Part shown: positions 6,333 to 55,443 of the stretch, in pieces
Layout: each line of letters opens with the position of its first letter
Numbering within the stretch: position 1 is the first letter of the stretch
Assembly: GCA_973895155.1 (NCBI GenBank)
Contig: OZ316898.1
Location: forward strand, 15,716,330-15,780,329
Length of the DNA stretch: 64,000 bases
DNA from: Marsupella aquatica
Lineage: Eukaryota > Plantae > Marchantiophyta
Direction of reading: 5' to 3'
Notes under the pieces: generated by a model
Database searches by the model: none
What the model was told of the DNA's origin: nothing
What the model saw: the letters and a program-made list of their open reading frames with translations, nothing else
Made by a program: the position numbers and the translations under genes

Positions 6333-6336
6333 AAAA

Positions 6337-9300
6337 TGTGGTGCGTCCCATGGCTCCCTAAACCCAAGAAACCCCTCAGCTCAAGCCGATTCCCACAGGT
6401 TTCGTGCTTGGCGAGGCCGTTTCCGCGGCTTAGCGGCATGGGACGCTGCTAACCTTCTACTACTACTATTAACATTTTACACACATATACTGGACAGATC
6501 CTTCATCGGGTCATGAGATACGTAGCCGGCCTAATATAGGCCTTCCCCTGTCTTCCCCTGTCTTCCCCTGTCTTCCCCTCCGTCTTGTTAGGTATGTTTG
6601 GATTCCGCCGTTGGAATGATCCCCAATAGGCTTGGTTAAGCCGCTAAGACCTCTCTCAGCTCGACACATCCAACTCTTACTCCCTTGCTTACTTTCCTTC
6701 CTTCTGTTGATGTGGGCACTCTTCACACAAGTTAATGCGACACACAAATAGCAAAATGACTCATTCTGACTGAGTCATACCATGCACTTGCCATACAAAC
6801 AGTACATCTCATACACAAGTTCTGCGAACTAAGCCGTGAGGCCAACTCTATTCAGCTCTTAGGCATGAGGAAACATGAATATACACAAGGGTCACTGTAT
6901 GACTAACCGAGAGCTTCTCGTACTACTTGATCCCAGCCCGGCTGGTGCAAACTAAAAACTTGCTAAAGAAGAGGCCCTGAGCTCCCCGCTGCCCAGGTAC
7001 TTATCCTGGTAGTGGATCCGCCATTCTTTGCATCGTAAGCCTAATCTACTTAACAGTAATCTACTTGCCCGAATCTACCTATGTACAGCAAGGCAGGAGC
7101 ACAAGTGTTGCTCCTACCAGTGGGACCGCAATCCCACTAAGCTAAGTGTGAGGGCCGCTCCTGGTTCTGATCCTAATCCTAACGTGGAGATCCGCGCCCG
7201 CCCTGCCCACTCACACCTCCTCCCTCCACGTCCGCCCTCCCTAAAAGGAACGGCGCCCTTGCACCGTCACGACACCGGTGGTGGATCCTTAATGGACGCC
7301 CCCAACGCTTCCTCCTCAGCCACTGCCGTAGGCTCATTCCCTGACAGATTACCTGCCCTTGACTGAGTCAACTCTCCATCGGCCTGACTGGGTCCACCAT
7401 CGGCGTCGGCATCGGCTCGAGAATCGGTTACGGCCTCAGCCTCGGCTACGGTCTCCCCGGCCTGCTCAAGAGGCGGATCGGGAATACTGGCCTCCTCATT
7501 GAGTAGTTCGGCTTGGGCCGCACCATCCCTACCTGTGATCATAGCGGGATCTATTGCCGTATTCATGTCGGAGGATGGTGCTGGTTCTACCTCTTTGGTC
7601 ACCACGGCTTGTGGAGTCGGATTACTCCTTGACCCTGAAGGTTTCCGCTTTTTCTTCTTTTCTGGTTCGGCAGCTGGTCCCTTCCCCTTCCCACTTACCT
7701 CCGACACTGGTGCAGTTGGCGTGGCTTTTTCTTCGGCCAGTACCACTCCTGGTAACTTGGTTGCCCCAATTGGAGTTGGGCCTGATGAAGACAAGCACCT
7801 AAATACTGCGGCTTGTTTCTTCAGCCGCTCCGTTTGGTTGTCGGCCCGCCGCTGGAGGTTCTCCATCTTCCTCGTGATTTCCTCCAACTCCTCCTGGGTC
7901 TCATCCAGGTCCTTGCGTGCCTCCTCTAGTTCCTTCTGGGCTTCCTCCCGTTCTTGTTTCAAGGTAGTCCTCTCCTCCTGGGTTGCTTTTAGCTCCTTGT
8001 TGAGCTCTGCAATGATGACAGACTCCATCTGGTTCATCTTGGCGTAAGTCTGTTCGAGCATCTCGTCCTTCTCCCTTAGGTCGGCCTTGAAGCTGGCCGT
8101 CAGGGACGCAAGCTCCTGCTGCAGCGCCATAATCCCTTGATAGGATTTCCCTAACTCGGCCTCCTTCTGCTCAAGGGCTCCGCGGATTTTCTCGAGCTCC
8201 CCTTTCAACGCCCATTCCTTTCTTTGGGTCTCTGCCATGGCCCGGCTGTTGGCTGTTATGTGGGCCTCCTCTGTATTCTTCAGCTCTTGCTTCCACTTCT
8301 CCCTCTCTTTGATCGTGTCGGCCAACTCTCCCTGCGTCTGAGTCAGTTTATCCTTGATATTCTGATTATCAGCCTGCGCGGTGTCCAACTGCCCCTGCGT
8401 GATGTTTAGCTCATGTCGTTTAATCCGTAGTTCATCTTGGGCTTTCTTGGCCGCCCTTAGATCTTCAATCTCGGCTTCCATCTTCCTAAGCCGCCGAATG
8501 ACCTCGTCCTTCTTGCTTCTCTCTAAAGCCACCGCTTCTTCTAATTGGTGCTTCTCCAACTGCTCCCTATGGAAAAAGGGTCCTACCTCCAACTCCTCTC
8601 CAAAGATGCCGAGCGCAAGTTCCCCACACATCTCACCATACTCCATGGCTCTATTCTTAGCGTAGGTGGAGTAAGTAGAAGTGATCGGCATCGCCCATCG
8701 CGGCCTCTGCTCCCAAGCCGTCCTGCGGATCTCTTCAATCGTGGCTAGAGGTTTGCTTCCTTTTTTGGCTAGCCGCCTGATGTCCTCTGGCCAATCTCCT
8801 CCTGGTAAATCCTTTTCCTTAGCCAGGGCGGCCTCCTCCTCCTGCTTGATTCGCTCCTGAAATTCCTGCACCGTCTGTTTTATGCCGTCGAAGCTCGGGG
8901 GAGCAACATCTGGTGGGGGAGACTCAGGGCTACTCTGCTGGTTGGGGTCCCCTCGCACTACCCTTGGAAGTGTGGGGACAAACCGGCCACAGGTCCTTAC
9001 TCCTGGAACGTGATGGTCCGACCCATAGCCGGAATTATCATGGCTGCAGTCCTCCACTGCCTCCTCTACCTCTTGGACGTCCGGCTTCTCCCTCTCCTCT
9101 TCGTCGGTAGGAGCTTCAGGCAATTCTGCCTCAGATTCGGAGCTTGAGGTTCCCACGTACATTCGAACACCTGGCTTGGATTCCGGCCTGATTCTCTCCT
9201 TGTCTCCAGCAAAGGGGTTTTCTCTTGTGAGCCGGTGTAGGCCTACCTCTGTAGTAGTGTCCTGCATTGTTGCCATTGCCGTTGTTGTTGCCGATGCCGA

Positions 9301-11014
9301 TTTCTTTTCTTTCTCCAGTAGTTTCAGCAGACTCTGCATGCCTGGTTGCTGCATCGGCAAGTCTTCCTTCCTGGGCCTAAACACCTGCTCGATCGTAGGA
9401 CTAACAGGTGGTTGAGGCTTCTCAGCCAACGGCCTCGGCGTTGGAGCTTCCTCAGGTGCCCTTACCTGCAGGGGAAGTACCGGGGCAAAAGTCTGACCTC
9501 TGGCATACCGGCACAACAGCGGCATGTGATAGCCAAGCCGCGACACGCTCCCCATGCCGATTACCTGCTGCTCCTCCTTTAAGATCTTCTTCAATTGGTT
9601 GAGGAGGTACCCGTTGTAGTCCCGGCTTGGGTCTGGCCTTTCTGCCAGATAGACCTGTGCCTTGCCGATCTCTGCCCTCGGCAAGTTACAATGCATGGTC
9701 ACCCGCAAGAAGTCGATCATCTCTCCTATGTGCGGGTTGGTGCAGGTGTTCCGGAAGAAGCCATTCTTCGTTGATGGCCCGGGGAACGACCGGAACTCCT
9801 TGTCAGGTAAGGTCTTCCTGGTATCAACTTTGGTCTTATTGCCTATCGGCAGGCCAAACACTTCGGCAATTACCTTGGGAGTAAGATAGAAATCCTTCCC
9901 ATATATCCTCGTGCAATTGGTCTCGGGTTCCCATGACCCCACGAATTCTAATAGGTCTGACTCCGGTACCTCCGGCTTCAGCCATGGTAATCTTACAAAG
10001 GCCTCCAAGCCGGATCCGGCCATGAAGCCTTGGTACTTCTTGGTCTGCATGGCCGTGAAGCATGCATCCTCCTCCCGTGCAAAATGTAGTTGCACCTCCA
10101 CCGGTAGGGTTGCCGCCCAGCCCTTCCAGGTGTCATCCCTGGTTGGAATGGCCTTGATGGGATCGACCTCCTCCTCTTCGGCTTCTCCCTGCCTCCTGCT
10201 CTGCTGCTCGGCTGGCTTCTTTGGTGCCGCCGACCTCGTTCTTTTTGCCGGGGTGGCTTCATCGTTGACGGCTCCCTTCCTCTTCATCTCTGCTGCCGTG
10301 GAGGTTTCTCCTAGCACCGTTGCCTGGGTCCACCTTTCTGTGCTACCCTTTAATTCCCAGTGTATGTCATTGCAGTTCTTGATGGCCTCTCGGATGCCGA
10401 CGACGCTGTCTTTGCAAAACAGAAGATCGTCGAGTTGATTGGAAGTAGGCGTCCATAGGAACTCGTCCTTGATGAGTTCGCCTCCTAAGAAAGCCGTCTT
10501 CTGCAGCTCCCACAATCGAGCGAGCTCCTGCCGTTCTCGAGCTGCCCTTTCTGATTCCTCGTCCTCGTAAGTCTTGATGTACTCAGTTGCCCGTTCGAAC
10601 AGGCATCCCCAGAAATGTGCCGCTTGATTGACATTGCTCATACCCTCCTTAGGTCGATCGTCGGTATCTACTCTCTCCCCGAGTGCTTACCTAAGCAGCT
10701 GACAGTAGTTGGCCTCCCGTAGTCGTCTGCCTAGTTCGTGCTCGCAAATGAGCCACCATCTCCTGCAAGCGCTCCTTACCCCTCTCCTCCGCCGGTCCTT
10801 CTTCCCATTGATCCTTCCTAGCCGCCGACGCTTAACGCGCCCTAACCCTAATCGGGTTTTCACCCCCAGCCTTACCTCCGGCCTCGGCCCGGGTTCCATG
10901 GTTGCCCCTAATTGTTTATATTTTCCTTGTTTTGTCCCTATACTAAGGTGTTCCTAGGGTGCCTTCCTGCTTTACCCACTTAACCGGCCGAGTGATTCCT
11001 GTCTAGGCATCACA
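6337..11014 (-). repeat. 5' LTR of A1 (4678 bp)
   Basis: Matches both A2 LTRs end to end; TG...CA termini. Confidence 0.93.
7267..10641 (-). CDS. LTR-encoded 1124-aa protein (two conserved globular regions, acidic/Pro-rich linker, long coiled coil)
   Basis: Intact ATG-to-stop ORF wholly inside the LTR. EFV...TRIYGK..LTP..I..VFGLP resembles plant retrotransposon accessory (Transposase_32-like) proteins; heptad-rich E/K/Q/L region; KKKRK NLS-like motif. Confidence 0.85.
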   Translation of the reverse strand: MSNVNQAAHFWGCLFERATEYIKTYEDEESERAARERQELARLWELQKTAFLGGELIKDEFLWTPTSNQLDDLLFCKDSVVGIREAIKNCNDIHWELKGSTERWTQATVLGETSTAAEMKRKGAVNDEATPAKRTRSAAPKKPAEQQSRRQGEAEEEEVDPIKAIPTRDDTWKGWAATLPVEVQLHFAREEDACFTAMQTKKYQGFMAGSGLEAFVRLPWLKPEVPESDLLEFVGSWEPETNCTRIYGKDFYLTPKVIAEVFGLPIGNKTKVDTRKTLPDKEFRSFPGPSTKNGFFRNTCTNPHIGEMIDFLRVTMHCNLPRAEIGKAQVYLAERPDPSRDYNGYLLNQLKKILKEEQQVIGMGSVSRLGYHMPLLCRYARGQTFAPVLPLQVRAPEEAPTPRPLAEKPQPPVSPTIEQVFRPRKEDLPMQQPGMQSLLKLLEKEKKSASATTTAMATMQDTTTEVGLHRLTRENPFAGDKERIRPESKPGVRMYVGTSSSESEAELPEAPTDEEEREKPDVQEVEEAVEDCSHDNSGYGSDHHVPGVRTCGRFVPTLPRVVRGDPNQQSSPESPPPDVAPPSFDGIKQTVQEFQERIKQEEEAALAKEKDLPGGDWPEDIRRLAKKGSKPLATIEEIRRTAWEQRPRWAMPITSTYSTYAKNRAMEYGEMCGELALGIFGEELEVGPFFHREQLEKHQLEEAVALERSKKDEVIRRLRKMEAEIEDLRAAKKAQDELRIKRHELNITQGQLDTAQADNQNIKDKLTQTQGELADTIKEREKWKQELKNTEEAHITANSRAMAETQRKEWALKGELEKIRGALEQKEAELGKSYQGIMALQQELASLTASFKADLREKDEMLEQTYAKMNQMESVIIAELNKELKATQEERTTLKQEREEAQKELEEARKDLDETQEELEEITRKMENLQRRADNQTERLKKQAAVFRCLSSSGPTPIGATKLPGVVLAEEKATPTAPVSEVSGKGKGPAAEPEKKKKRKPSGSRSNPTPQAVVTKEVEPAPSSDMNTAIDPAMITGRDGAAQAELLNEEASIPDPPLEQAGETVAEAEAVTDSRADADADGGPSQADGELTQSRAGNLSGNEPTAVAEEEALGASIKDPPPVS

Positions 11015-17856: not shown

Positions 17857-20809
17857 GAATTCCATGGTAATAGCTAGACAGCTAGCACTAGCTATATAGA
17901 CCTAAATGACCACTTGTCTCCATGTGTTGATTTCATCGGCATATATATATACCTTATTTACGTACATTGTAATTATAATAACATTCTTCGTTGTTATTTT
18001 ACTTAAATTGCTTCACTCTCCCCTCTAGCTAGTGACAAGTGGTCATTAAGTCCTACCACATAACATCAAATGAAAGCTTAATTCCAATTATATTCCTTTG
18101 AAGTTGACCCTTCCCATACTGTGTCCCATGTCCATCATTTGGAAAATTATCAGGGATACAATGACTTGCCTTAAAAGAAAAATGTAAATCCCCCCATGCC
18201 ACTCCTAATCCCCCACTCTAACAAAACCCAATTAGTTCGATTCCCAACAAAATGAACACCATATGCCATACAAAAACCATTGGGAACCTTTTCCATACCA
18301 AAACCATCGAATACTGTTTTTGTTCCTATCCACTTTGTATAAAGATCGGAAACCATTATCAATACTATTTATATCAAAAACATTTTTGTTCTTTCTAACA
18401 TCACAAACAATATGCAAATATCATGGATTGGACGCCTCCTGCTCCACGGCCATGACACTATCCAATTTTCTGTGAATCAGAAAATATCTAATGCAATTAG
18501 AATGGTACAACGCATCCGATAGTTTTAGTATCGGTAGTATTGTTACCGATGTAGGTAACATGGCAAATATGCATGGAAAATAGAGTGTGAAAAAGAGTAT
18601 CGGAAAAAGCCAAAATATGTACGAGTGCTGGTAGAAGACAACAAGTTTGGCAACATGCGCATAGTCTTTCCTGTAAGCAGCATCTAGCAATGGCAACAGA
18701 CCTGCACAACTGCCACAATACCTATCAGCTTGGACATTGTCCGGGTGACCGTGTTTTTTGGTAAGAGCATTGGATCTTATAAACTCAACCTTGCATGCCC
18801 ATAAGTTCTACACTAAAACCAAAATGATAATTCTAGTAATAAGGAGAGTGAATATTAAGAAAAGTTCAGGTAAAACTAATATATTGTTAAACCCTAATTT
18901 CACCATACTTGTAGGCCAACACATCTTGGAAAATAGTTTTTTATGACATATGATCATAATATCTTGAAGAGAAAATGAAACAGAAATGTCACCTGGACTC
19001 ATATTTAGACCATGATTTTAATAAAGGACAAAGATAATGCACTCTCACTCCTCTCGGTAAGACACTACTGAATATATTATTGGCTCGTTAGAATCCATAA
19101 CAACAGCTGCAAATTGAGCTCCAAAATGATAGGTTAAATGTTGTCTCATGGATGACTTGTCTAAAAGATAAACTCTAATAAAAAAGAGGCTACAAAAAGG
19201 AATATTAAGGATATCTCTTTCTCCTAGATTCATGGTGGCTCTCTTGTTCCTTTGCTATCTCGGCCAAATGACGCCCCCCCTAAGTTTTCAAAGAGACTCT
19301 ATTTTCTAAGGTATCACCTATAAGTCTATCACTCATTCCTTTGCTATATGGGCCAGAGGACACTCCACTACTATGTTCAAGATACAAAAAACTTCACAAC
19401 CTTGAATGATGAAAATTGAGGAATGAGGAGAGAGTGCCCCTCTCCACTTTATTTATAGTGCTCACCAAGAGGGCATGGATCAAGCCCAAACACTTGGATG
19501 AATGCCAAGTGGTAAGCATCTAAGGTACAAGAGTGTGCTAATACTGTAGCCAAAAGATAGTAGGGGGAATTATCAGACATTTCACTAATTCTGGAAAATT
19601 CTCCCAAGAATGGAATATTGAAAAGTGCTTTTTGGAAATTTAGAGAAGGGGTTTTGGAATTTCTAAAATGAGGTTTTGGAATATTTAGTTTAGAGTTTTG
19701 GAATTTTCAGATTAGAGTTTTGGAATGAACACAAAGGGCACCTTGTCCATTGAAACTGTCAATTTTCTCGTTCATTCTATCGAGTGCTCATTTTATATAG
19801 TGCAAATCTTTGTGGAGCTTGTCCTTATTATCGACAGATGCAACGATGAAGGAATTTAAAATCAAATGTGCTAGAGTCCTTTTTATATTGAACTTTTCTT
19901 CCATAATATAAATTGTCACGTCATCAGCCTTGGCCTTACCTCGGGCTTCAGCTTTAAACGGGCACCTCCTTCGTAAATATGAGGGTTCGGGCAGGGAGGG
20001 AAGAGCGTAATGCACCTAATTCACGTAAACTAGCACTAAGTGCGCCTACTGTTAGATACAGACATCTCCTAGGTATGGTTTGTGGTCCGCTGCCGGAACG
20101 TACCTTAGTCGATAACAGGATCGACCCCGGCTTAAGGGCTTCTAAGCCTTCGTGTTGTCCGCCTTCGATCTGGATTCTATGATACAGGTCCTCAACCCGT
20201 GCTCGCAACCACATACCCGCAAGTTGCACCCCGTGCATGACTCGGGTAGTGCGTTCGGCCCAGCGTTGTCACCTATACACGAGATTCACACACATACACG
20301 CGCACAAGCATACAATCTCGATTTACATGAAGGAAATAATGGGAAAGGATTTTACTACATAGGGGACATGTGCGTACACTTGGTTGACCCGACAGCTCCG
20401 GAATGAACAGGTTCAAGGCCGAGAGAGTATACTACAACGGAGCCCGGCTCTGCACTCGCCTGATGAGCTTAGTCCTACCCCCTCCCCTTGGTACTCTTTC
20501 ACTCCCAGAGGTCGGGACTCCCCGCACATACCACGGATGTCCAACTCTGAGACTAAAAACCCCCCTTGCCTCTACCGAGGGGTGCACTAAATACTAAGGG
20601 CCGAGGAACGGAGTGTCCTCCCGCCCAAAGATTCGCTGACTTAGGTCCTAACTAATCTGACTGTCAGGCCAAAAAACGGCTGTGTCTTATTAGAAGATCC
20701 TAATCTACGCAGGTTGGACAGCATGGCAGTGCTACTGTAACTAAGGCAGGTGCCTGTCCCAATAGCCTGACTTAGCTATTCCTAACCCTATTCTATTCCT
20801 ACTCCGCCG

Positions 20810-23500
20810 CTAATGCCTGGCACGCTTGCCAGAGCCGCCCGAGTGGGAGCGGCCATCCCGCTGCTTACAAAGTCTGTCATTGTCCGCCTTGAGGAGCTGG
20901 ACCTGGTCCAGCAGAGATTCATTCTCTCGCTTCGCCGCGTCTGTCTCCTCCGCTGCCTCCTGGCATGCCTCCTCCAGCTGCTGGGCGTCGCTCGTAAGCT
21001 TGCCCGCCAGCTGGTCTTGCTTCTCGGCCTCGGTTTGGAGTCGCGCCACTTCGGCCTGTAGCATGGCTATCTCCGCAGTGTCCCGCTGGGCCCGTTCTTC
21101 GGCCTCCTCTAGGTCTTTCTGCCAGATGACAGTTTGCTCCTCTAGGTCTTTCTGCCAGATGACAGTTTGATCCTTCAAACTGTCAATCTGGTTCCGAAGT
21201 CGTGCAATCTCGGCCTCGTTCCCAGCTTTGGTCTGCTCGGCTAGGGCGGTAAGGGCGTGCGCCTTTGCTAACAACTCGTCGACGGCTGCAACTTTGGGTC
21301 GTAGTTGCAAAAGCTCAGCCTCTTGAGCCGCAACTTCATTCTTTAAGTATACGGACTCCACCCGGTATCGCTCTATCCTCTGAAGGGCCTCTGACTAGGC
21401 CCGACCTGCCTTTACTGCGGCAACTAACTCCTGATTGAAGAAACAGGCTACCTTCCGGGCCATGAACTCCCCGGTATCCCGGGCAATTTGATGAGAGAAA
21501 TCTCCCAGAAGCCCGTTCAGAAATGTACCCGGTACGAAGAGTTCCGGGTGGTCCAGGTTGTGCCTGTCCGGAGTTGGGCACGGGCAGACGTCAACATGCG
21601 CGGGGGCCGGGGCAATGACATCCAGCCCTGGGGACGTAATGTTGGAAGGGGCTGGAGTGTCCTCCTGCAGCAATGTCCGGTTCTCCGGAATAGCCACCGG
21701 TGGGTCTTTGGGAGACCCGGGCTCGAGTAAGACCTCCGTTGTACCAACTTCGGTACTTAGCCCGGCCTGTTGGATCGCATCTACGGTTGCGATAACTGAC
21801 CCATCCGGTACCTCCTCGGTTACGACTACAGCTACTTGGGGGGTGGGTGAAGCTTGCGTGTCCGCTGGACTTTGGGCCTCGGGTTGGGGCCGTCTCTCCA
21901 AGGTCGGAAAAACCCACCTAGCTGGGACCAGCTTTGTAACGTTGACACGGGGAAGGGTTCGTCGATCAAACCGAGCATACCACTCAAGAATGATCTCGAT
22001 GTGGCTAGCAAAATACGCCTTCCCGCCAATGTACAGCATCTTCCTTCGCCGCTCCATCTCTTCATGGAATTTCTTAGTGAAGTACGACGCCCACTTCCTA
22101 GGTCGATAGTTCTCGACCTGGATAACCTGGGCGGCGGAGATCTCCCCCCGGGGTTCCATCATGTGGAGGGCGTACCTTTGGAACTCCAGTCGCTCAGCTA
22201 TCTCGGGGATGAGGCAGGTCCTCATCACGAACCCGTTGTCCACTGCTCCCTCTGAGGGAAAACTTGAGGATTGGTACTTGGCTCCCTTGCCCCCGGGAGC
22301 TCGTGATTCGACTCGATGGTCACCTTTTGGTAATCCGAAGATCATCTTGAGCCGTTCTTCCATGAGGGACATATTCCTTCCCCGCAGCCGAGTATGCTGA
22401 CGTGCGTCATCATAATTCTTGACGAATTCTATCATGTCCTCCCCGTAGTACCTGCAAGTGTTCCAGGGAAGAGAGGCAAGGTGCTCGAATCCCTGAGTCT
22501 TCAGGTACACCGCATGCTTGGGATGGAGGATGTTCTTATGCACGTTTTCCCCCATGCGGTGCATTGTCACCTTGGCCACGGCTACCGTGGCCAATGGTAA
22601 CCCGGATGCAGTGGTGGGTTCCTTCCTCTTCTTCCCCCGTGACTGGCTTGGGGAGGGTGACACCTCCCCATCCTCTCTATCGGGCATAGGTAGTGCTACC
22701 GCCGTTAAAATTGGGCCCGGGGCGGCCACGGTCACCGTGTTGTCTGCTGGAGCCGCTCCTTGGGTCCGAGCATGGGGAGGGGACGATGTAGTGTCAGCCC
22801 CCTGAGTATTTGCTCCTCTAGGCCGCCTGAGCAAGTGTGGGGTAGCCTCATCGTCGTCGCTAAGGTCCACAGCGTTGATGACGGAGTGTACTTGTACTGC
22901 TAGCGGGGCGATCGGTGGTGGGGGTTGGCTAGGCTGAGACTAAGACTAAGACTGAGACTGAAGCTGAGCCTGAGCCTGAGCCTGAGTCTGCGTTGGTGCG
23001 GGTACGGGTATGGGGTCAACTAGGTCGGTGTCGGCGGTTGCGGGTCTAGTTCCCATGAAGCTCTGCAGGTGCTGGTAGAAGTTCTCCAAAGCAAGTGCAG
23101 ACGACCTTGTCGAATGGGTAGTGCTGGACTCGCTGTTGATGATAGCCCGAACCTGAGCAGGGATGTGGTCGAAGTGATGTCGTTGCAAGTCGATCGTACC
23201 CGGGATATTGAAGACCTCGTCCGGAAGCCGAAGCAATGCTTCCCAGAAACCGATATATTTGTCTCCATTGAAGAAGTACCCAGATACCTCTACTGGTCGA
23301 TAAAGCTCGCTCTGAGACAGGTAGTCAAAGTTAAGGATGTAGTGGTGTCGTCCTGCTAGGTGGATGGCTCTCTCGTACTCGCGTTCGATTTCATATCGGC
23401 GTGGGTTGGCGTGTTTCAATGAGTCGGCCAAGTGTCTTCCCGTAGATAGGAACTGCGTCCAGAATCGAATGGCCAAACTGGAGAGGATCATGTGCGACAT
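20810..23500 (-). pseudogene. Family-B LTR-encoded protein (~896 aa reconstructed) broken by three in-frame TAG codons
   Basis: ORFs 22946-23500, 21395-22870 and 20810-21361 share one frame. Stops at 22946, 22940 and 21395 are probable CAG>TAG changes. Homologous to the family-A LTR protein. Confidence 0.85.
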
Positions 23501-23562
23501 TCAGAGGAGATAGTAGTGGCGCGTGGACTGATGGACTGGTGCACTACAAAGGGTCGGCTCCC

Positions 23563-23570
23563 TTTTTATA
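23563..23570 (-). promoter_or_regulatory. TATA box upstream of the family-B LTR ORF
   Basis: GGTATAAAAAGG ~63 nt before the ATG at 23500; GGTATAAAAGG retained in copy B2 at 39158-39168. Confidence 0.55.
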
Positions 23571-25885
23571 CCTTGAGGGCTTGTCGATCCCCCGACATCT
23601 CCTCATTGCCTATAGGCTGAACCGTTCACGCTTGTAGTGTGCCGACCACTTTTCCGGTCTGAGTCACCGCGTGTCAGTGGACGCCTCCCGAAGTTCGTTA
23701 TACGGACCCGAGGGAGGGGCCCCTCCACGCTCGTAACCCGGGCGTGCGAATGGCGATGTGCCGCCAGCCCGAACATGAATTCCCCTTATTGACTAATGAT
23801 TTCCTACTCATAATGGCTACCTAAATACTGTCGTTATGCTAATCATAGCGGCCTAAGATACCCCTAATGCGCGTGCTAAGCACGGTTTAGACCGAATTAC
23901 TCATTACTCGCCGTACCGGCGGCGTCACATAAATTCCTTGATTTGATGGGTCAACGGTCTAATTATCAAAGATATCGCGGATCTTTCCGCGTATGACAAG
24001 GGACTTTCTATAGAGCCCTTTCTTTCTGTAAAATTCTGGATATCTTCCCCACGAAGCCTGAAACTCCAAGGCCTGGGATACCAACCGGGGGCAGGTTCGT
24101 TGTCAGATGTTTTTTCGCCAAACACTTTTGACCTTTCACCTTCGCCCATTTTAATTTTCACGACCTGGGACGGGGTACACCTTTCCAATTCTGATATTCT
24201 ACGCTCGAGAGTGTCAACTCTCTGAGTGAGGAGCGATAGAGACCAATTCTGTGAATCACTCAATCTCTCTAATCATCCCATAGATGATTCACAAAGTTAA
24301 CAAATCTCAAGAGGAAGGCCTCTGGGTCAGAAGCTTGGCCCAAAGGGGGGGACTTCTAGAGCCCAAGGATTAGACAGCCATCGGACGAGGAATTTGCGCT
24401 AAGCTGAGCTCTATTGGGTAACTGGAAATCAAGTCTACTTGCTTGGTGTACGCTACGCATCCTCCAAAGTTTTAGGAAAGAGGTGACACAAAAAAACGAG
24501 ATACATCAGAGCTGAAGATACCATGCAAGTGATTGACAACGTGCACACAATTTTGAAAAGGAAAACTTTTCATTATTCACAAAAATAGCTGATGTTGGAA
24601 GAGGCATCCCTCAAACCAATGCCATTGATGCCAAAACGGAATTCAAAATCTGTTGGGAAGATGACTCCAACCAAACTACCCAAGGAAGATGGCATCGAGA
24701 TGTGGGTAAGACAATTGCGGAGGAACAGAAGGACCTCAACGCTCTACGCGAGACTAGTGTAGAAAGAGATTTGGGTTTAGGGTTGATCTACGATCTCACA
24801 GTTGCAAGAGGCATTCCTCCAACCATCGTCGAGGTTCCTAAACACCTTTCAGATAAGAAAATCTCCTTTACCAGCTTAAAGCAAAAACAAAAGTGAGCGA
24901 ACACAATCTAAATTTTCCAGAGTCGAATATCTACGCGAGACCCGTGTAATCCTCAAAATGCTTCAAAAACTTAAGACTCTCCCCAATGGCTTCAAATCTT
25001 AATCGTTCCACGAAGATGGCATCCACTCATCCGAGTCCGGAGTGGATTTGCGGCAGTCAAGGAATGCTTCCTTTGCCCAAGCTCGATGGTCCATCAGAGC
25101 CCGCCGCTGCTTCTTTCCCTTCCCATAGTAGACATTGACGTTTTCCTTAGTTCATGCTTCTTTTGTTGACAGTCTCCCTGGGCATCTTTCCGGCTTTCCT
25201 CGCACCCGATGCCTCCTACCCCTCGATAGGCGGCACGGAATTTCCTCCACGGCTAATCTTTGAGTCATCCATTTTTTATTCTCCAGGTGTCTTACAATCG
25301 GGAAAGCCACAGGTATCTCCATCGAGTTCTGACAAGAAAAACCTTTTACATCGAGTACACTCTCTTAAAAAAGATCCTTCTTCGTCAGAATTGCAATTAT
25401 GGTCAAACCCATCCGCAGGCGTGTAAATCTTGGAAGACCTCCTTTGGGGCATTCCCCTCCTTTGAGCTATGAGGCGGGGAAACCTCTATTGAGTTGTTGG
25501 TCACGCCGAGGTCCTTGGACATCACTGGTGGATTCATCGAGAGAACTCAAGAGATCCTCTCGAAATCAGATTAAGAAATATGAAAACTAACACAAATCAA
25601 ATGATGATAGAAACTAACATCAACAGCAGATTGAAAGTGAATCAGAAACCGCAGAATGGGAAAAGAGAGTGAGGAGTTCCCTATTTGGACAAGACCAAGA
25701 AATGGCCAAAGCGTGCGAATCACGGGTCTACGGCCATGTCGCTTTCAGTAGACCCTAGCCTAGAGACCAGAGCGAGGCTGCTCTATGCGACCCTCGTGTA
25801 GATCCAAATGGTCTACCTAAACCTTCCTTGGTAAGGCAAAACGAAGAGGCCCTACGCGAGCCTCGTGCAGAAACAAACACTCCGT

Positions 25886-26896
25886 TCAGAAGTGCTCGGA
25901 GATGTATGCATTCACGCTTTCAAGAACATGAACTGGAACTTTCACTTTATCCTTTGCCTTTGAATTCCAGCCATTGATTGTAGACGTTGCGAGGAGCCAG
26001 TCGTGTTGGATTGTAGGACTTTGGTAATTTGGATCAACTTCCCAAGACTGTTTAGAATTGAAACAATCCCGATATCGTTCAGAGTCTGGGATAGATGATT
26101 TTTGATGGACAGGTCTCCACCATTCCACCTCAAACTCCCCAGCATGAGCATCATCCGGAACCCGCACAACGTGATCCATGGCTCTTCCTAGCCAGAATCG
26201 AAGGGGAACTGTTTGTTCGAATTCATCTGTTGGACGAAGAATAACAAACGTATCCTTTTTAATATCCTCAAGTGGGGAGAATCTTGACCTTTCTCGCTCC
26301 GAGCGGTGGCCAACAAATATTGTCTGTCTCTCATATTGATCTTCCTGAAGTTCACGCTCAAGGCTGCCCACAACATCGTTGACAGAGCCAATGTTATTCT
26401 CATAAATCCCAACCTCAGCTCGATATCCGGTTCCATTGTTAGTTCTTGGCCAAAACCCATCGAGTAGCAGATTAGGCGCAGAGCACAGGGAACCTTCGAA
26501 GACCTTGATGACATTTTCCCAATACTCAATTTCCGGGGATCGAAAATGATATCCCTCTGATGTGACATCTTTCCAGGCGGCTTTTAGCCATGAAACGTAA
26601 TGAACAAGGTATTCGAGAATGTCACTCGCTCGCTTATGAGTTGACTCCATTTGTTTTGAAAGAGGATTTCCGGAGGGAAACACAGAGTCCTTTCCAGTAG
26701 TTTTCCAAATGGTGTGACCTTTTATAGGTAGCCACGGCAAATCAATTTTCTCCCGATATTGATAAACAGGTGTATTTTCTTTCATTGAAAACAAGAACTG
26801 CACAAGGGCCGACTGACCTTGGATCTTCTTCACATAAGAAGAAACATAAGCTTTGTATCCGGCAACCTCTCGGATGAATCTTGGGACTGGATGCAT
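25886..26896 (-). pseudogene. C-terminal part of a putative DNA-transposase-like protein; 5' part missing
   Basis: 336-aa open frame; IQGQSALVQFLF...PVYQYRE and FVILRP...FWLGRA...FEVEWWRP recall DUF7869-type transposon proteins (from memory). Sequence character changes abruptly near 26900. Confidence 0.4.
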
Positions 26897-38801: not shown

Positions 38802-41800
38802 TGTGACGCCGCCAACACGGCTAGTAATGAGTAATCCGGCCTAAATCGTGCCGAGCACGCATGGAAGGGACTTAGTAGTCCGTAGTAATTAGCATAGCGA
38901 CACAAAATTAGTAGTAATGATGAATAAGACAAGATTAGTCAATAAAGAGCATTCACGCTTGGGCTGGTGGCGCAGCACCGATCGTACCATCGGATTACAA
39001 TCTTGTTATGACCGTCTACCTCAAATCTGTATAACGGATTTTGGAGACGGCCCTCTGACATGCCCTGAACCGGACTGCAGAGTGGCCAGTACACTATAGG
39101 CGTGAGGGACTTGGCCTATCAAGAGCAGGAGGGGCCGATCGGCCAAGGCCTCTCCAGGGTATAAAAGGCAACCTCTTCCCCACCTCTGTATTGGCACTTC
39201 ACTCCTTGCACCAGCTTTGGTAGCAGCTCCCCCGTCTCTCTTAGCAATCCAGCGCTCTTTGCCTTATGACTGGCCCTATCTTGTCCAGCTCAGCCCTTCG
39301 GTTTTGGTATTGATTCAATCCACGGAGGTATGCCATTGAGAAGCATTTTGAACGACAAGTCCGGCTGCTAGGCCATTCCCATTGGATCAACAATTTTGGA
39401 CTTACCTACAACTCGACCTACAAGATCAAGTATTGCAAGGACAAAGAGATAACCGAGCTCTTCTTTGACGGGGATAAGTACATCGGCTTCAGGGAACCAT
39501 CCTCCGCCTCCCCGACAAGGTCTTCCAAATCCTAGGGATCATCGACCTACAACGGCACCACTTCAACAAGATCTTCGCCAAAGCCCAGGCACTTGCTTAG
39601 GCAAGACCTACCATGACCCACCGGTATAGGTCAAACTTGGCTACCATGGCACTCATTCATCCCATGAACAGCCAAATGCCGCTCGGCCTCACTCAAGCCG
39701 CTCCCCACCACCGATTGCACCGCCCATTTGGGTACTGTCCATGGTAAACGCGGTAAACAGAAGCTTGGAGGATGAGGAGGTTCATCCACCCCTTGTCCGG
39801 AGACCACCGGAGATGCACCGACATGAGTCAAGTAATACATCACCGCCCGCACAAGCCCAGACCCGAGAGGCAGCCTCGATGGACAACACGATGACGGTTG
39901 CAGCGCCGGCACCAGTTCTAATGGCAGTAGCACTACCCCTGCCGGATAGGGAAGATGGGGAGATGTCCCCTTCTACAAGCCACCTCGGGAACCAGTCTTG
40001 GGGAAGGAAGAGGAAGGAGCTGGCTGTAGTATCTGGCTTACCCGTGGCCACCGTCACAGTGGCCAAGTTGACCATGCACCGCATGGGGAAGAATGTCCAC
40101 AATAACATTATCCATCCAAAGCATGCGGCGTACTTGAAGACCCAAGGGTTTGAACACCTCGCCGCCCTCCCTTGAAACACTTGCAGGTACTATGGGCAAT
40201 ATATGATAGAGTTCATCCAGAACTTTGACAAGGCCCGCCAACAGACCCGTGCGCACGGACGGGTAATGTCCCTGAACGAGGAGCGGCTGAGCTCATTTTT
40301 GGCCTATGTGAGGGTCAAAACCGGGTAGAATCATGGGCCCCAGGGGGCAAGGGAGCAAGTACCAATCCTCTAGCTTCTCGGCCGAGGGTTCGGTGGACAA
40401 CAGCTTCCTAATCAGGACATGGCTCATCTCGGAGATCGTGGAGCAGCTGGAGTTTCAGCAATACGCCCTCCACATGATGGAGCCACGGGGCAAGATATCC
40501 GCTGCCCAGGTAATCCAGGTTGAGAACTACCGGCCTAGAAAGTGGGCTTCATTCTTTGTCAAGAAGTTCCACGAGGAGATGGAGCGACAAAGGAAGACCT
40601 GGCCTTGTACCTTGGGGGGGAGGCGTACCTCGCAAGCCACATCAAGATTATTATTGAGTGGTACGCCCATTTTGATCGATGAACTCTTTCGGGGCTCAAC
40701 TAGCCCAAACTCACCCCGGCCCGGTGGGTCTTTCCGGCTCAAGAAAGGCGGCCGCAGCCTAAATCCCGGAGTACAGCGCCAGTGATGCCCACCCCAGCCC
40801 CACCACCAACCATTGAGGCACCTTCTTTTGTGCTAGATTCAGTAGTAATTCCAACCCTGGATGCCCAAAACCAGGCCCGTGCAGTGACAGTCAAGCAGGA
40901 GGAAGTCAGCCTCAAACCCAAGGCCATAACCTCGGAGAAAGCCGTGGTACCCTTCGTGCATGTCCAAGTGGATCCCCTTGCTGGACACCCGTCCCCATCT
41001 ACCCTTACTACCCCGGAGCTGGATGTAAAAACCCCAGCCTCTACCCGGGTGGAGGTCTATCCTTCCACGAACCCGAGTGGTCACAGCTTGGTGAACTTGG
41101 AACTCTTTGCATCAGGCACGTATTTGAATGGGTTGCTGGGCGACTTCTCCCAACAGATTAGTCAAGAAATGGGGGAGTTCATGGCCCGCAAGGTTGCCTA
41201 CTTCTTCAGCTAGGAGCTGGTGGCAACGGTGAAAGCAGGACAGGCACAAGCTGAAGCCACAACAAAGATTGAACGATATCGGGTTGAAGCTGCCCAACTC
41301 TTAGATGAAGCTTCACAATGGGATACCGAGTTACAACTTCTCTGGCCTTAGCTTACGACCACCCTTGCCTAGGTTTCCGACACCAAAGCCAAGTTAACCT
41401 TGGCCGAGCAAGCCGGAGCCGGAAAGGACACCAAAATCTCATGGCTCTGGGCCCAGATTGACAGCTTGAAAGGGCAAGCTGTAATCTGGTAAAAAGATGT
41501 AGAGGAGGCCGACACTTGAGCCCAAAGGATACAGCCAAAGTGGACGCCCTGAAAGTAGAGGTGGCATGGCTTCAATAGCCTGAAGCCGCTAAACAGGACC
41601 AACTGGTGGTGCAACTGACAAGCGACGCTCAACAGTTGGAATTGAAGAGGCGTTGCAGGAGGCAGCAGAGGAGATGGACACAATGAAGTGAGAGAACAAG
41701 TCTCTCCTGGACCAAGTCTAGATTCTCAAGTAGGACGCTGATTGGCTGAGGAGGCAACAGGACTGGCGCTCCAAGTCCCACTCGGGCAGGTCTGGCAAAC

Positions 41801-42687
41801 ATGCCAGACATTAGGCGGTGCGGCAAATTTAGAATAGCTTAGGTTTAGCCACAAAAATTGAACACTGCAGACAAGCGTCAAAACTAATTAGCGACGCTGT
41901 CAACCGTTCTTTAGCATAGCATCTTATGGTAATGGCAAGCCATTTCACAACCTGGAATTTAGCGGAAACCGTTCCAGGCTACGGCTCTTAGTTAGTATTT
42001 AGAGCACTCCCGGTAGAGGCAGCGGGGGGGGGGGGGACTTTAGGTTTTGAACCGGGTATCCATGGATGTCCAAGGAGTCCCGACCTTACTGAATAGAAGA
42101 GTATTGCAGAGTGAGGGTATGACTAATCTCGTCGGGCGAGTGCGGAGCCGGGCTCCGTTGTAGTGTACGCCTCCCTGCCATTGGGCTATTTGTTCTTGAA
42201 GAAGTTGAGTCAACTGCGTATGTACATGTGATGGATTTGTAATTGAAAGTCTTTTCCCCACCATTTCCTTCGTGTAAACCGAGATTATATGGTATGTAAT
42301 CTGTTATGTTCATAAGTCTTGTATATGGGTATAGAATGCTTGGCCAAACACATTGTACAAGCTGCGCATGGGGTGACGGCTGTGGATAGTGGTTGCAAGC
42401 CCGGGTTAGATACCCTTATCATCAAAGCTGGATCAGAGGCGAATAACGCAAAGGCTTAGAAGTCCTTAAGCCGGGGTTGATCCCGTCATCGACTTAAGGT
42501 ACGTTCTGGCGGCGGAATACAAAACATACCTATGATGTGTGTAGACATAAAATTGGACTCGGGTAGCGTCAAGTTACGGGAATAAGTGCACTTTGCACGT
42601 CCCTCCTTGCCCGAAAACCTCAATATTTACAAAGCCGATGGTCGCCTAAGCCAAAATCCGCATAAGGGTGACGCTTTCGGTGTGACA
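38802..42687 (+). mobile_element. Solo LTR of family B, copy B2 (3886 bp, older)
   Basis: Termini TGTGACGCCGCC...GTGTGACA; TSD GCTAG/ACTAG (4 of 5); colinear with B1. Confidence 0.82.
39266..41814 (+). pseudogene. Degenerate family-B LTR ORF
   Basis: MTGPILSSSALRFW..., HPKHAAYLKTQGFEHLAALP, LHMMEPRGKISAAQVIQVENYRPRKW, LNGLLGDFS; many frameshifts and stops. Confidence 0.85.
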
Positions 42688-44597: not shown

Positions 44598-47500
44598 TGT
44601 GATGCCTAGACAGGAATCACTCGGCCGGTTAAGTGGGTAAAGCAGGAAGGCACCCTAGGAACACCTTAGTATAGTGACAAAACAAGGAAAATATAAACAA
44701 TTAGGGGCAACCATGGAACCCGGGCAAAGGCCGGAGGTAAGGCTGAGGGTGAAAACCCGATTAGGGTTAGGGCGCGTTAAGCGTCGGCGGCTAGGAAGGA
44801 TCAACGGGAAGAAGGACCGGCAGAGGAGAGGGGTAAGGAGCGCTTGCAGGAGATGGTGGCTCATTTGCGAGCACGAACTAGGCAGACGACTACGGGAGGC
44901 CAACTACTGTCAGCTGCTTAGGCAAGCACTCGGGGAGAGAGTAGATACCGACGATCGACCTAAGGAGGGTATGAGCAACGTCAATCAAGCGGTACATTTC
45001 TGGGGATGCCTGTTCGAACGGGCAACTGAGTACATCAAGACTTACGAGGACGAGGAGTCAGAAAGGGCAGCTCGAGAACGGCAGGAGCTCGCTCGATTGT
45101 GGGAGCTGCAGAAGACGGCTTTCTTAGGAGGCGAACTCATCAAGGACGAGTTCCTGTGGACGCCTACTTCCAATCAACTCGACGATCTTCTGTTTTGCAA
45201 AGACAGCGTCGTCGGCATCCGAGAGGCCATCAAGAACTGCAACGACATACACTGGGAATTAAAGGGTAGCACGGAAAGGTGGACCCAGGCAACGGTGCTA
45301 GGAGAAACCTCCACGGCAGCAGAGATGAAGAGGAAGGGAGCCGTCAACGATGAAGCCACCCCGGCAAAAAGAACGAGGTCGGCGGCACCAAAGAAGCCAG
45401 CCGAGCAGCAGAGCAGGAGGCAGGGAGAAGCCGAAGAGGAGGAGGTCGATCCCATCAAGGCCATTCCAACCAGGGATGACACCTGGAAGGGCTGGGCGGC
45501 AACCCTACCGGTGGAGGTGCAACTACATTTTGCACGGGAGGAGGATGCATGCTTTACGGCCATGCAGACCAAGAAGTACCAAGGCTTCATGGCCGGATCC
45601 GGCTTGGAGGCCTTTGTAAGATTACCATGGCTAAAGCCGGAGGTACCGGAGTCAGACCTATTAGAATTCGTGGGGTCATGGGAACCCGAGACCAATTGCA
45701 CGAGGATATATGGGAAGGATTTCTATCTTACTCCCAAGGTGATTGCCGAAGTGTTTGGCTTGCCGATGGGCAATAAGACCAAAGTTGATACCAGGAAGAC
45801 CTTGCCTGACAAGGAGTTCCGGTCGTTCCCCGGGCCATCAACGAAGAATGGCTTCTTCCGGAACACCTGCACCAACCCGCACATAGGAGAGATGATCGAC
45901 TTCTTGCGGGTGACCATGCATTGTAACTTGCCGAGGGCAGAGATCGGCAAGGCACAGGTCTATCTGGCAGAAAGGCCAGACCCAAGCCGGGACTACAACG
46001 GGTACCTCCTCAACCAATTGAAGAAGATCTTAAAGGAGGAGCAGCAGGTAATCGGCATGGGGAGCGTGTCGCGGCTTGGCTATCACATGCCGCTGTTGTG
46101 CCGGTATGCCAGAGGTCAGACTTTTGCCCCGGTACTTCCCCTGCAGGTAAGGGCACCCGAGGAAGCTCCAACGCCGAGCCCGTTGGCTGAGAAGCCTCAA
46201 CCACCTGTTAGTCCTACGATCGAGCAGGTGTTTAGGCCCAGGAAGGAAGACTTGCCGATGCAGCAACCAGGCATGCAGAGTCTGCTGAAACTACTGGAGA
46301 AAGAAAAGAAATCGGCATCGGCAACAACAACGGCAACAGCAACAATGCAGGACACTACTACAGAGGTAGGCCTACACCGGCTCACAAGAGAAAACCCCTT
46401 TGCTGGAGACAAGGAGAGAATCAGGCCGGAATCCAAGCCAGGTGTTCGAATGTACGTGGGAACCTCAAGCTCCGAATCTGAGGCAGAATTGCCTGAAGCT
46501 CCTACCGACGAAGAGGAGAGGGAGAAGCCGGACGTCCAAGAGGTAGAGGAGGCAGTGGAGGACTGCAGCCATGATAATTCCGGCTATGGGTCGGACCATC
46601 ACGTTCCAGGAGTAAGGACCTGTGGCCGGTTTGTCCCCACACTTCCAAGGGTAGTGCGAGGGGACCCCAACCAGCAGAGTAGCCCTGAGTCTCCCCCACC
46701 AGATGTTGCTCCCCCGAGCTTCGACGGCATAAAACAGACGGTGCAGGAATTTCAGGAGCGAATCAAGCAGGAGGAAGAGGCCGCCCTGGCTAAGGAAAAG
46801 GATTTACCAGGAGGAGATTGGCCGGAGGACATCAGGCGGCTAGCCGAAAAAGGAAGCAAACCTCTAGCCACGATTGAAGAGATCCGTAGGACGGCTTGGG
46901 AGCAGAGGCCACGATGGGCGATGCCGATCACTTCTACTTACTCCACCTACGCTAAGAATAGAGCCATGGAGTATGGTGAGATGTGTGGGGAACTTGCGCT
47001 CGGCATCTTTGGAGAGGAGTTGGAGGTAGGACCCTTTTTCCATAGGGAGCAGTTGGAGAAGCACCAATTAGAAGAAGCGGTGGCGTTAGAGAGAAGCAAG
47101 AAGGACGAGGTCATTCGGCGGCTTAGGAGGATGGAAGCCGAGATTGAAGATCTAAGGGCGGCCAAGAAAGCCCAAGATGAACTACGGATTAAACGACATG
47201 AGCTGAACATCATGCAGGGGCAGTTGGACGCCGCGCAGGCTGATAATCAGAATATCAAGGATAAACTAACTCAGACGCAGGGAGAGTTGGCCGACACGAT
47301 CAAAGAGAGGGAGAAGTGGAAGCAAGAGCTGAAGAATACAGAGGAGGCCCACATAACAGCCAACAGCCGGGCCATGGCGGAGACCCAAAGAAAGGAATGG
47401 GCGTTGAAAGGGGAGCTCAAGAAAATCCGCGGAGCCCTTGAGCAGAAGGAGGTCGAGTTAGGGAAATCCTATCAAGGGATTATGGCGCTGCAGCAGGAGC

Positions 47501-49219
47501 TTGCGTCCCTGACGGCCAGCTTCAAGGCCGACCTAAGGGAGAAGGACGAGATGCTCGAACAGACTTACGCCAAGATGAACCAGATGGAGTCTGTCATCAT
47601 TGTAGAGCTCGACAAGGAGCTAAGAGCAACCCAGGAGGAGAGGGCTACCTTGAAGAAGGAATTGGAGGAAGCCCACAGGGAGCAGGAGGAGGCCAAAAAC
47701 GAGCTGGAGGGGGCACGTAAGGACCTGGATGAAACCCAAGAGGAGTTGGAAGAAATCACGAGGAAGATGGAGAACCTACAGCGGCGGGCCGACAACCAAA
47801 CAGAGCGGCTGAAGAAACAAGCCGCAGTATTTAAATGCTTAGCTGCAGCAGGTCCATCTCCCGTTGGGACAAACCAGTTACCAGGGGTGGTAATTGCCGA
47901 AGGACAAGCCGCGCCACCTGCACCAGTGCCGGAAGTAAGTGGGAAGGGGAAGGGACCAGCTGCCGAGCCACCAACGAAGAAGAAGCGGAAACCTTCAGGG
48001 TCAAGGAGTAATACGACTTCACAGGCCGTGGTGATCAAGGAGGTAGACCCAGCACCGACCCCAGACAGGGTCACGGCTAAGGATCCAACTACCCTAGGGG
48101 AAGGGGAGGCTGAAGCCGTGGGAGTGGCTGAGGCCGAAGCCGTGGGTATTGCCGAGGCCGGTGTCGAGGCTGAAGCCGAAGGTGGACCCAGTCAGGCCGA
48201 TGGAGAGTTGACTCGGTCAAGGGCAGGTAATCTGTCAGTAGGCGGGCCAACGGCAGTGGCTGAGGAGGAAGTGTTGGGGGCGTCCATTGAGGATCCACCA
48301 CCGGTGTCGTGACGGTGCAAGGGCGCCGTTCCTTTTAGGGAGGGCGGACGTGGAGGGAGGAGGCGTGAGTGGGCAGGGCAGGCGCGGATCTCCACGTTTA
48401 GGATTAGGATCAGAACCAGGAGCGGCCCTGACACTTAGCTTAGTGGGATTGCGGTCCCACTGGTAGGAGCAACACTTGTGCTCCTGCCTTGCTGTACATA
48501 AGTAGATTACTGTTAAGTAGATTAGGCTTACGATGCAAAGAATGGCGGATCCACTACTAGGATAAGTACCTGGGCAGCGGGGAGCTCAGGGCCTCTTCTT
48601 TAGCAAGTTTTTAGTTTGCACCAGCCGGGCTGGGATCAAGTAGTACGAGAAGCTCTCGGTTAGTCATACAGTGACCCTTGTGTATATTCATGTTTCCTCA
48701 TGCCTAAGAGCTGAATAGAGTTGGCCTCACGGCTTAGTTCGCAGAACTTGTGTATGAGATGTACTGTTTGTATGGCAAGTGCATGGTATGACTCAGTCAG
48801 AATGAGTCATTTTGCTATTTGTGTGTCGCATTAACTTGTGTGAAGAGTGCCCACATCAACAGAAGGAAGGAAAGTAAGCAGGGGAGTGAGAGTTGGATGT
48901 GTCGAGCTAAGAGAGGTCTTAGCGGCTTAACCAAGCCTATTGGGGATCATTCCGGCGGCGGAATCCAAACATACCTAACAAGACGGAGGGGAAGACAGGG
49001 GAAGACAGGGGAAGGCCTATATTAGGCCGGCTACGTATCTCATGACCCGATGAAGGATCTGTCCAGTATATGTGTGTAAAATGTTAATAGTAGTAGTAGA
49101 AGGTTAGCAGCGTCCCATGCCGCTAAGCCGCGGAAACGGCCTCGCCAAGCACGAAACCTGCGGGAATCGGCTTGAGCTGGGGGGTTTCTTGGGTTTAGGG
49201 AGCCATGGGACGCACCACA
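44598..49219 (+). repeat. 5' LTR of A2
   Basis: TGTGATG...CACCACA; direct repeat of 55444-60065 with roughly two dozen substitutions counted by eye. Confidence 0.96.
44971..48312 (+). CDS. LTR-encoded 1113-aa protein (frame also open upstream to 44674)
   Basis: Intact ORF inside the 5' LTR. Start placed at MSNVNQ because A1 has a stop upstream and the family-B ORF starts at the equivalent point. Confidence 0.85.
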   Translation: MSNVNQAVHFWGCLFERATEYIKTYEDEESERAARERQELARLWELQKTAFLGGELIKDEFLWTPTSNQLDDLLFCKDSVVGIREAIKNCNDIHWELKGSTERWTQATVLGETSTAAEMKRKGAVNDEATPAKRTRSAAPKKPAEQQSRRQGEAEEEEVDPIKAIPTRDDTWKGWAATLPVEVQLHFAREEDACFTAMQTKKYQGFMAGSGLEAFVRLPWLKPEVPESDLLEFVGSWEPETNCTRIYGKDFYLTPKVIAEVFGLPMGNKTKVDTRKTLPDKEFRSFPGPSTKNGFFRNTCTNPHIGEMIDFLRVTMHCNLPRAEIGKAQVYLAERPDPSRDYNGYLLNQLKKILKEEQQVIGMGSVSRLGYHMPLLCRYARGQTFAPVLPLQVRAPEEAPTPSPLAEKPQPPVSPTIEQVFRPRKEDLPMQQPGMQSLLKLLEKEKKSASATTTATATMQDTTTEVGLHRLTRENPFAGDKERIRPESKPGVRMYVGTSSSESEAELPEAPTDEEEREKPDVQEVEEAVEDCSHDNSGYGSDHHVPGVRTCGRFVPTLPRVVRGDPNQQSSPESPPPDVAPPSFDGIKQTVQEFQERIKQEEEAALAKEKDLPGGDWPEDIRRLAEKGSKPLATIEEIRRTAWEQRPRWAMPITSTYSTYAKNRAMEYGEMCGELALGIFGEELEVGPFFHREQLEKHQLEEAVALERSKKDEVIRRLRRMEAEIEDLRAAKKAQDELRIKRHELNIMQGQLDAAQADNQNIKDKLTQTQGELADTIKEREKWKQELKNTEEAHITANSRAMAETQRKEWALKGELKKIRGALEQKEVELGKSYQGIMALQQELASLTASFKADLREKDEMLEQTYAKMNQMESVIIVELDKELRATQEERATLKKELEEAHREQEEAKNELEGARKDLDETQEELEEITRKMENLQRRADNQTERLKKQAAVFKCLAAAGPSPVGTNQLPGVVIAEGQAAPPAPVPEVSGKGKGPAAEPPTKKKRKPSGSRSNTTSQAVVIKEVDPAPTPDRVTAKDPTTLGEGEAEAVGVAEAEAVGIAEAGVEAEAEGGPSQADGELTRSRAGNLSVGGPTAVAEEEVLGASIEDPPPVS

Positions 49220-49223
49220 TTTT

Positions 49224-49241
49224 TGGCGCTAGATGGAGGGG
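49224..49241 (+). promoter_or_regulatory. Primer binding site
   Basis: TGGCGCTAGATGGAGGGG just 3' of the 5' LTR. Confidence 0.8.
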
Positions 49242-49288
49242 GCATTTCTTAAGCCGTGAGATATGAAGTTAGAACGGAAGCGTAGGTA

Positions 49289-55200: not shown

Positions 55201-55430
55201 ATTCATACCCGTGATCTTGTGCTACTTTATGACAGTAGGTATAGTAGGTTTCCAGGAAAGCTTTACACTCGTTGGTTAGGACCCTTTAGAGTAACCATGA
55301 TGTTCCCCAATGGCTCCGTGCAATTGGCCAACATTACGGGAGAGGTATATCCAGTTCGCATCCATTATGACCGCCTCAAGAAATACTATATGGACGAAGA
55401 TGACGTTGTTCGCGAGGACGCTTCACAATT

Positions 55431-55440
55431 AAGTGGGGAG
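55431..55440 (+). promoter_or_regulatory. Polypurine tract
   Basis: AAGTGGGGAG 3 nt before the 3' LTR, inside integrase coding sequence. Confidence 0.75.
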
Positions 55441-55443
55441 CTA

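Follow-up and report, generated by a model that had tools for sequence, protein, structure and literature searches.

Within a 64,000-nt stretch of Marsupella aquatica DNA (contig OZ316898.1, positions 15,716,330 to 15,780,329, forward strand; hereafter the window), which is a nest of plant transposons, we found that a conserved gene of about 2.7-3.3 kb fills 67-72% of the LTR (long terminal repeat) in a Ty3/gypsy retrotransposon, family A, and of two LTR-like solo units, B and C (Table 1). Sequence comparison supported homology of the proteins borne by A and B, and the second of their two domains, as modelled for family A, is predicted to have the fold of the VANC21 region (residues 304-533) of a DNA-bound crystal structure. 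The original prediction for this DNA assigned the gene no function, and the fold match is new here. We consider it an even call that unit B is a solo LTR left by a second Ty3/gypsy family, and that this family, as does family A, would hold in its LTR an anti-silencing gene of the VANC/PMD type.

The two proteins had previously been aligned by eye, and pairwise or profile alignment had been proposed as a check; both were run, and the LTR-borne proteins of A and B proved homologous. Domain 2 aligned directly (BLASTP E 5e-20, 28% over 185 aa; z 35, reached by none of 2000 shuffles). Domain 1 did not, with a pairwise E of 0.44 and a local score reached by 12 of 2000 shuffles, but a profile of six N-termini (unit B plus five homologues picked by eye, with A left out) scored 21.5 bits (E 2.3e-5) against residues 1-104 of family A, where 2000 shuffles reached 7.9 bits at most; residues F13, W14, R40 and G101 were invariant in seven sequences. 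All nine motifs listed for B were present, as were nine of the ten for A, the tenth (VFGLPIG) having come from the minus-strand family-A copy where the gene at 44971-48312 reads VFGLPMG. A coiled coil had been claimed for both proteins, and the similarity between the two was weak (E 0.005). The supposed absence of DNA similarity held for alignment (best blastn E 0.19) but not for a 28-nt motif common to the 3' ends.

By sequence, the LTR gene belongs to a wider family with a layout of two domains and a coiled coil. Out of 1.84 billion representatives, the domain-2 profile recovered 67 proteins at E<=0.001, and organism names were found on 8 of the 21 clusters looked up from these 67 (seven Calypogeia fissa, one Riccia sorocarpa), which points to a liverwort host for the window. 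Domain 1 was also present in several of the homologues, and one of them, P0071 (906 aa), matched the unit B protein along almost its entire length (E 3e-76 and 5e-13). A tree of those 33 of 62 rows that had at least 140 residues, in which deep forks were weak and the root arbitrary, placed A (with P0004 and P0016) and B (with P0071, P0005 and P0006) in different supported subgroups. Word-indexed homologue searches yielded 0 of 5,445 candidates for family-A residues 1-400, and 1 of 538 and 0 of 3,178 otherwise, and pattern matches in JGI metagenomes (353 and 517), viral contigs (115) and prokaryote genomes (28) gave no confirmed homologue locus. Two distant domain-2 homologues, P0056 and P0060 (one from Riccia sorocarpa), carried a weak DDE_Tnp_4 stretch at the N-terminus; domain 2 may also occur beside PIF/Harbinger nucleases, or these gene models may be fused.

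Unit B runs from TG at 19914 to CA at 23929 with an imperfect terminal inverted repeat, and TAAAT flanks it on both sides, confirming the claimed 4-kb bounded unit. A Pfam scan returned no gag or pol domain for it, also as claimed, and reading of the flanks together with Pfam found no primer-binding site (PBS), polypurine tract (PPT) or gag/pol in or beside it. When contigs from four sequencing runs were compared with 19414-24414, one contig in each of two runs (X1 and X2) contained a flank-to-flank joint that skipped 4,021 nt, equal to the 4,016-bp unit plus the 5-nt duplication; the flanking DNA is a repeat as well, so the empty site may be paralogous. In the same two runs the contig depth, taken as a sum, rose about 100-fold at 19915 and dropped at 23923. 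The unit also has the layout of the proven family-A LTR, with a leader of 373-429 nt, the gene and a trailer of about 900 nt. From its ends, duplication, layout and shared 3' motif, we strongly infer that unit B is an LTR, most likely the solo LTR of a second Ty3/gypsy family; gag/pol flanked by the LTR was seen in the window for the homologous family A.

The predicted frame of about 896 aa in unit B is there as 896 codons (23500-20810) but is broken by three in-frame stops, at codons 185, 187 and 702. Among the 40 of 613 rows of the contig comparison listed, which include codons 187 and 702 and not 185, most of the depth in X1 and X2 has another letter at the two codons. Unit C, additional to the units of the original prediction, has about 70% DNA identity to B and is more decayed, its homologous gene being frameshifted. 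The TATAAAA upstream of the gene lies at the same position in both (LTR nt 359-360), and a U/G-rich region was seen by eye after the gene's stop. Each of the two units has a T-rich 22-bp tandem array in its vicinity, about 190 nt away for B (19630-19726) and about 920 nt away for C (37781-37881); the two arrays are similar, which may reflect a shared host repeat or a target preference.

Comparison of B with C gave a dN/dS of 0.16 over 796 aligned codons and of 0.06 in domain 2, values that are rough because dS is near saturation. The accompanying third-position bias persisted with transversions alone (107/63/188, P 2e-15) and without CG/CHG sites, and together these results support the earlier claim of long-term purifying selection on an LTR-resident gene. 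Within family A, 21 of the 23 transitions between the two LTRs fell at CG or CWG, which account for 800 of 2,521 C/G sites; this indicates methylated copies, explains the in-frame stops and makes dN/dS within the family unreliable. We therefore dropped the low values among family-A copies (0.05-0.07 in places) as proof of selection, since counts were small and CG/CWG deamination favours synonymous and stop changes; as such deamination favours stops, a TAG-reassigned code was likewise rejected as their source. The outer C of CCG accounted for 0 of the 23 transitions (170 sites), compared with 10 at CWG (340 sites), which suggests CWG-biased CHG methylation in this host.

The model of family-A domain 2 matched VANC21 over 190 of 201 residues, with a middling Z that was nevertheless more than 5 units above every other chain, at 9-10% identity; an earlier model from three sequences had been useless (pLDDT 35). 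Before the fold comparison, the Atlas had already given a lead to DUF1985 (score 0.88) and to a cluster with PMD on 14% of its members (scores 0.87 and 0.90). Profile searches of the window proteins and homologues found no match to DUF1985 (PF09331) and none to PMD (PF10536) at the curated cut-off, and PF20167 gave weak rows for two of the 67 homologues, with E 0.006 and 17 bits where the cut-off is 45, and none for the window proteins. PDB sequence searches gave no meaningful match, and BFVD gave none at E<=0.001, the best being A0A890CAY5 (805 aa, E 8e-3, TMq 0.37). The LTR proteins contained no transmembrane segment (maximum KD19 0.98 for A and 1.31 for B). Since neither the profiles nor the host element, which is Ty3/gypsy and not a VANDAL/Mu-like DNA transposon, agree with membership, we do not class the protein as VANC or PMD, but it most likely works like a member of one of them.

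VANC proteins bind short family-specific motifs (PMC5735166). The top 6-mer in the family-A LTR gene was TGCCGA, with 14 occurrences against 2.4 expected from synonymous-codon shuffles (z 8.7; largest null z 7.3 in 200), and gag and pol of A also contained it more often than expected (7 vs 1.6 and 6 vs 1.5). The pattern WWGCCG, defined afterwards, occurred 37, 16 and 17 times in the LTR gene, gag and pol, against 11.7, 5.5 and 7.1 expected (reached in 0, 0 and 1 of 1000 shuffles), and GCCG was the sole clear excess among 26 CG-containing 4-mers. WWGCCG showed no excess in unit B (4 vs 7.1) and no significant excess in five other ORFs. Against a VANC-like model, WWGCCG is dispersed and lies mostly in coding DNA, unlike the non-coding tandem arrays of VANC, and units B and C have no clear motif. 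No matching tandem array was found.

In the mechanism we propose, the LTR would be a self-contained cassette of TATA box, gene and U/G-rich 3' region, because TATAAAA stands in the same place upstream of the gene in B and C and the U/G-rich region comes after its stop codon. Once in the nucleus, the protein would form oligomers by way of its coiled coil and attach to a short DNA motif specific to the family and scattered along its own element, for which WWGCCG is the candidate in A; this binding would relieve methylation-based silencing and let gag-pol be transcribed. The gene probably lies in U3, reached when plus-strand priming moved to the integrase end; this placement is simpler because the first strong-stop product stays short, and it agrees with a PPT inside the integrase end. 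Each insertion would carry two gene copies, and LTR-LTR recombination would leave one, acting in trans until it decays, as in B and C. More tentatively, a broad and old liverwort Ty3/gypsy lineage may have built a sequence-specific anti-silencing gene of the VANC type into its LTR, with solo LTRs as autonomous trans-acting desilencers of their family and the motif in coding sequence. If true, VANC would have a counterpart among retrotransposons, transposons would have had the VANC/PMD fold since early land plants, and solo-LTR formation would not disarm the element.

The same gene with the same VANC/PMD-like fold could do another job without demethylation, as a simple transactivator of the LTR promoter, in the manner of foamy-virus Tas, or as a chromatin tether that steers integration. 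The structural evidence fits this equally well, the family-A motif could be an activator site, the copies carry methylation-type mutations, and host PMD proteins counter Polycomb and not DNA methylation (10.1101/2024.09.27.615353). We nevertheless regard it as rather unlikely, as VANC21, the only element-encoded protein of this fold solved, demethylates even without transcriptional activation (PMC5735166), and motifs along the whole element suit domain-wide action better than a single promoter site would.

The 28-nt motif raises a different alternative, that the protein acts on RNA in splicing, export or packaging, with the gene in a long R/U5. Its distance to the 3' end is 160-270 nt in A, B and C, and it is kept although the remaining DNA does not align; its 13-nt core has four matches in the window against 0.20 expected, for a pattern defined from those same sites. 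Inspection of the family-A LTR by eye also picked out a TATA-like site (nt 95), a donor-like AG|GTAAGG (around nt 140) and, close to the LTR end, an acceptor-like TTTAG|G. The predicted hairpin is small (about -9 kcal/mol, without a shuffle control), has no Rfam match, carries two changes in a fifth LTR (the third A copy) and may be no more than a common cis-acting signal of reverse transcription, and the protein whose fold was matched had been crystallised together with DNA; an RNA role is quite improbable. The non-coding parts of the A, B and C LTRs were enriched in TTAG (z about 4).

It is a shade more doubtful still that B and C are LTR-only or non-autonomous units moved by the machinery of another element. 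Both copies in the window are solo with no gag/pol seen beside them, and the weak DDE_Tnp_4 before the domain in P0056 and P0060 could mean that it travels with other transposon types, but the TG...CA ends, 5-bp duplications, family-A LTR layout and shared 3' motif speak for LTRs, and a solo unit has no PBS or PPT for the usual copying route. That the likeness to VANC21 arose by chance, from a mixed helical fold in a protein of unrelated, for example env-like or structural, role, is very improbable: the Z is middling and there is no sequence-level link, but the coverage, the lead over every other chain, the Atlas indication of the same families beforehand and the lack of a transmembrane segment all argue against it.

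Table 1. Features of the window discussed in the text.
Feature	Position	Strand	Basis
Unit B, 4,016-bp solo LTR-like unit, TG...CA	19914..23929	-	ends, target-site duplication, contig comparison
Target-site duplication TAAAT, left of unit B	19909..19913	.	sequence and empty-site joint
Target-site duplication TAAAT, right of unit B	23930..23934	.	sequence
Unit B LTR gene (896 codons with 3 in-frame stops)	20810..23500	-	ORF reading
Domain 1 of unit B gene, about 110-125 aa	23126..23500	-	profile, alignment
Domain 2 of unit B gene, about 200 aa	21956..22543	-	profile; family-A copy modelled
Coiled-coil-like region, then basic C-terminus (KRAR), unit B	20846..21403	-	weak coiled-coil Pfam rows below cut-off
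TATAAAA, 70 nt upstream of unit B ATG	23564..23570	-	sequence; promoter role inferred
28-nt motif with small predicted hairpin, common to 3' ends of A, B and C (unit B copy)	20070..20098	-	sequence comparison
Unit C, decayed solo unit related to B, TG...CA, flanks GCTAG/ACTAG (4/5)	38802..42687	+	DNA comparison
Family A, full Ty3/gypsy element, target-site duplication ATCAT at 44593-44597 and 60066-60070	44598..60065	+	repeat comparison
Family A 5' LTR, 4,622 bp	44598..49219	+	repeat comparison
Intact LTR gene of family A, 1,113 aa	44971..48312	+	ORF
PBS-like TGG... stretch, 4 nt past family-A 5' LTR	49224..49241	+	sequence
gag, protease-like region, reverse transcriptase, RNase H and integrase, Ty3/gypsy order	49289..55455	+	Pfam, reading
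Family A 3' LTR, 99.5% identical to 5' LTR	55444..60065	+	its gene copy has 3 stops
5' LTR of second, truncated family-A element	6337..11014	-	open LTR gene, 91% aa identity

In family A, Pfam found a zinc knuckle with gag. The PBS-like stretch is presumably of tRNA-Arg type; no tRNA or Rfam match was found. PPT-like purines sit within the coding end of integrase (55411-55455) and the stop codon of pol is 10-12 nt into the 3' LTR, so that the element has no 3' spacer. Pfam gave no chromodomain row and no second RNase H row, and family A may belong to the liverwort Tat elements without additional RNase H that have been described (PMC13468544), or else to another non-chromovirus lineage such as Phygy or Selgy. 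The second family-A element (622-11014, minus strand) is truncated within integrase, near 622. Compared with the other copy, its LTR gene diverges mostly in the C-terminal tail (98 differences in 203 codons, with four in-frame indels from codon 901 on), and the non-coding LTR parts differ by only 1-2%, which suggests that this tail is mosaic or fast-evolving. Between 0.59 and 0.81 of sampled family-A LTR words were present in six runs under four organism codes, suggesting that the family is shared by several species or labels.

Elsewhere in the window, broken plus-strand ORFs at 33280-36849 matched an Ulp1 protease (PF02902, E 1e-30) and a phosphatase of NIF type (PF03031, E 8e-10), and one ORF gave a DNA-methylase row (PF01555) that was weak at E 1.4e-4 and short of the cut-off; they are probably DNA-transposon cargo. 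CACTA transposase fragments (PF02992, DUF4218) lie at 15341-17143 (plus strand), and tandem arrays at 13708-14196, 31562-31859 and 37932-38196 have periods of about 51, 27 and 32 nt. A 336-aa minus-strand ORF at 25886-26896 had no Pfam family, its best row being MSL3 chromo-like (E 0.086).

Genes in LTRs are familiar from retroviruses, as with sag of mouse mammary tumour virus, nef (partly) of human immunodeficiency virus and the bel region of foamy viruses. As probably here, the coding sequence lies in or overlaps U3 and is duplicated at each integration; there is no sequence or fold link, and the gene described here takes up most of the LTR, with an apparent TATA box of its own. In plant Ty3/gypsy elements, extra ORFs are common, placed in the internal region (PMC6317226, PMC7264820, PMC3485330, PMC11728184), and their roles are described as largely open (PMC7264820, PMC12844716). 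Athila env-like/ORF-1 (PF03078), PF20167 and Retrosat2 ORF0 resemble the LTR gene as conserved, sense-strand, fast-evolving accessory ORFs with a coiled coil, but their place is the internal region, so that formation of a solo LTR removes them (PMC7264820, PMC3485330), whereas the LTR gene lies downstream of the PPT and, unlike the Athila env-like ORF, which stands between pol and the PPT, encodes no transmembrane segment. In the mostly open-access main texts covered (including PMC5418596, PMC1142308, PMC6431247, PMC12859917, PMC12844716 and PMC12885004), we found no plant LTR described as holding a VANC-like gene; the element tables of PMC6317226 may list LTR-internal ORFs.

The closest likenesses are to PMD and VANC. 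PMD (PF10536; PMD-A in extra ORFs of Ogre/Tat, and host MAIN/MAIL1) has been linked structurally to DUF1985 in print and, like the LTR gene, occurs as an extra ORF of non-chromovirus Ty3/gypsy elements, being present in 57% of Ogre elements (PMC6317226); its ORFs stand up- or downstream of the polyprotein, the survey covered angiosperms (PMC5418596), and the LTR gene lacks a PF10536 match. With VANC of the VANDAL transposons (VANC21, PDB 9LNJ/9LNK; DUF1985), the LTR protein shares a predicted domain-2 fold, the character of an accessory protein with a coiled coil and, in family A, a candidate short family-specific motif enriched in its own element. It differs in its slight identity and lack of a Pfam match, its extra N-terminal domain, its dispersed rather than tandem motif and its place inside the LTR of a retrotransposon, likely of a liverwort, whereas VANC is described as dicot-specific and in Mu-like transposons (PMC13547354). 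Sequence-specific anti-silencing is established for those dicot Mu-like DNA transposons, and because this locus combines an intact gene with a structural clue and a possible motif, the question is directly testable. A gene filling most of an LTR would make the solo LTR an expression cassette and not an inert remnant, with a bearing on the open ancestry of PMD, MAIN/MAIL1 and VANC and, possibly, on new sequence-specific epigenome tools.
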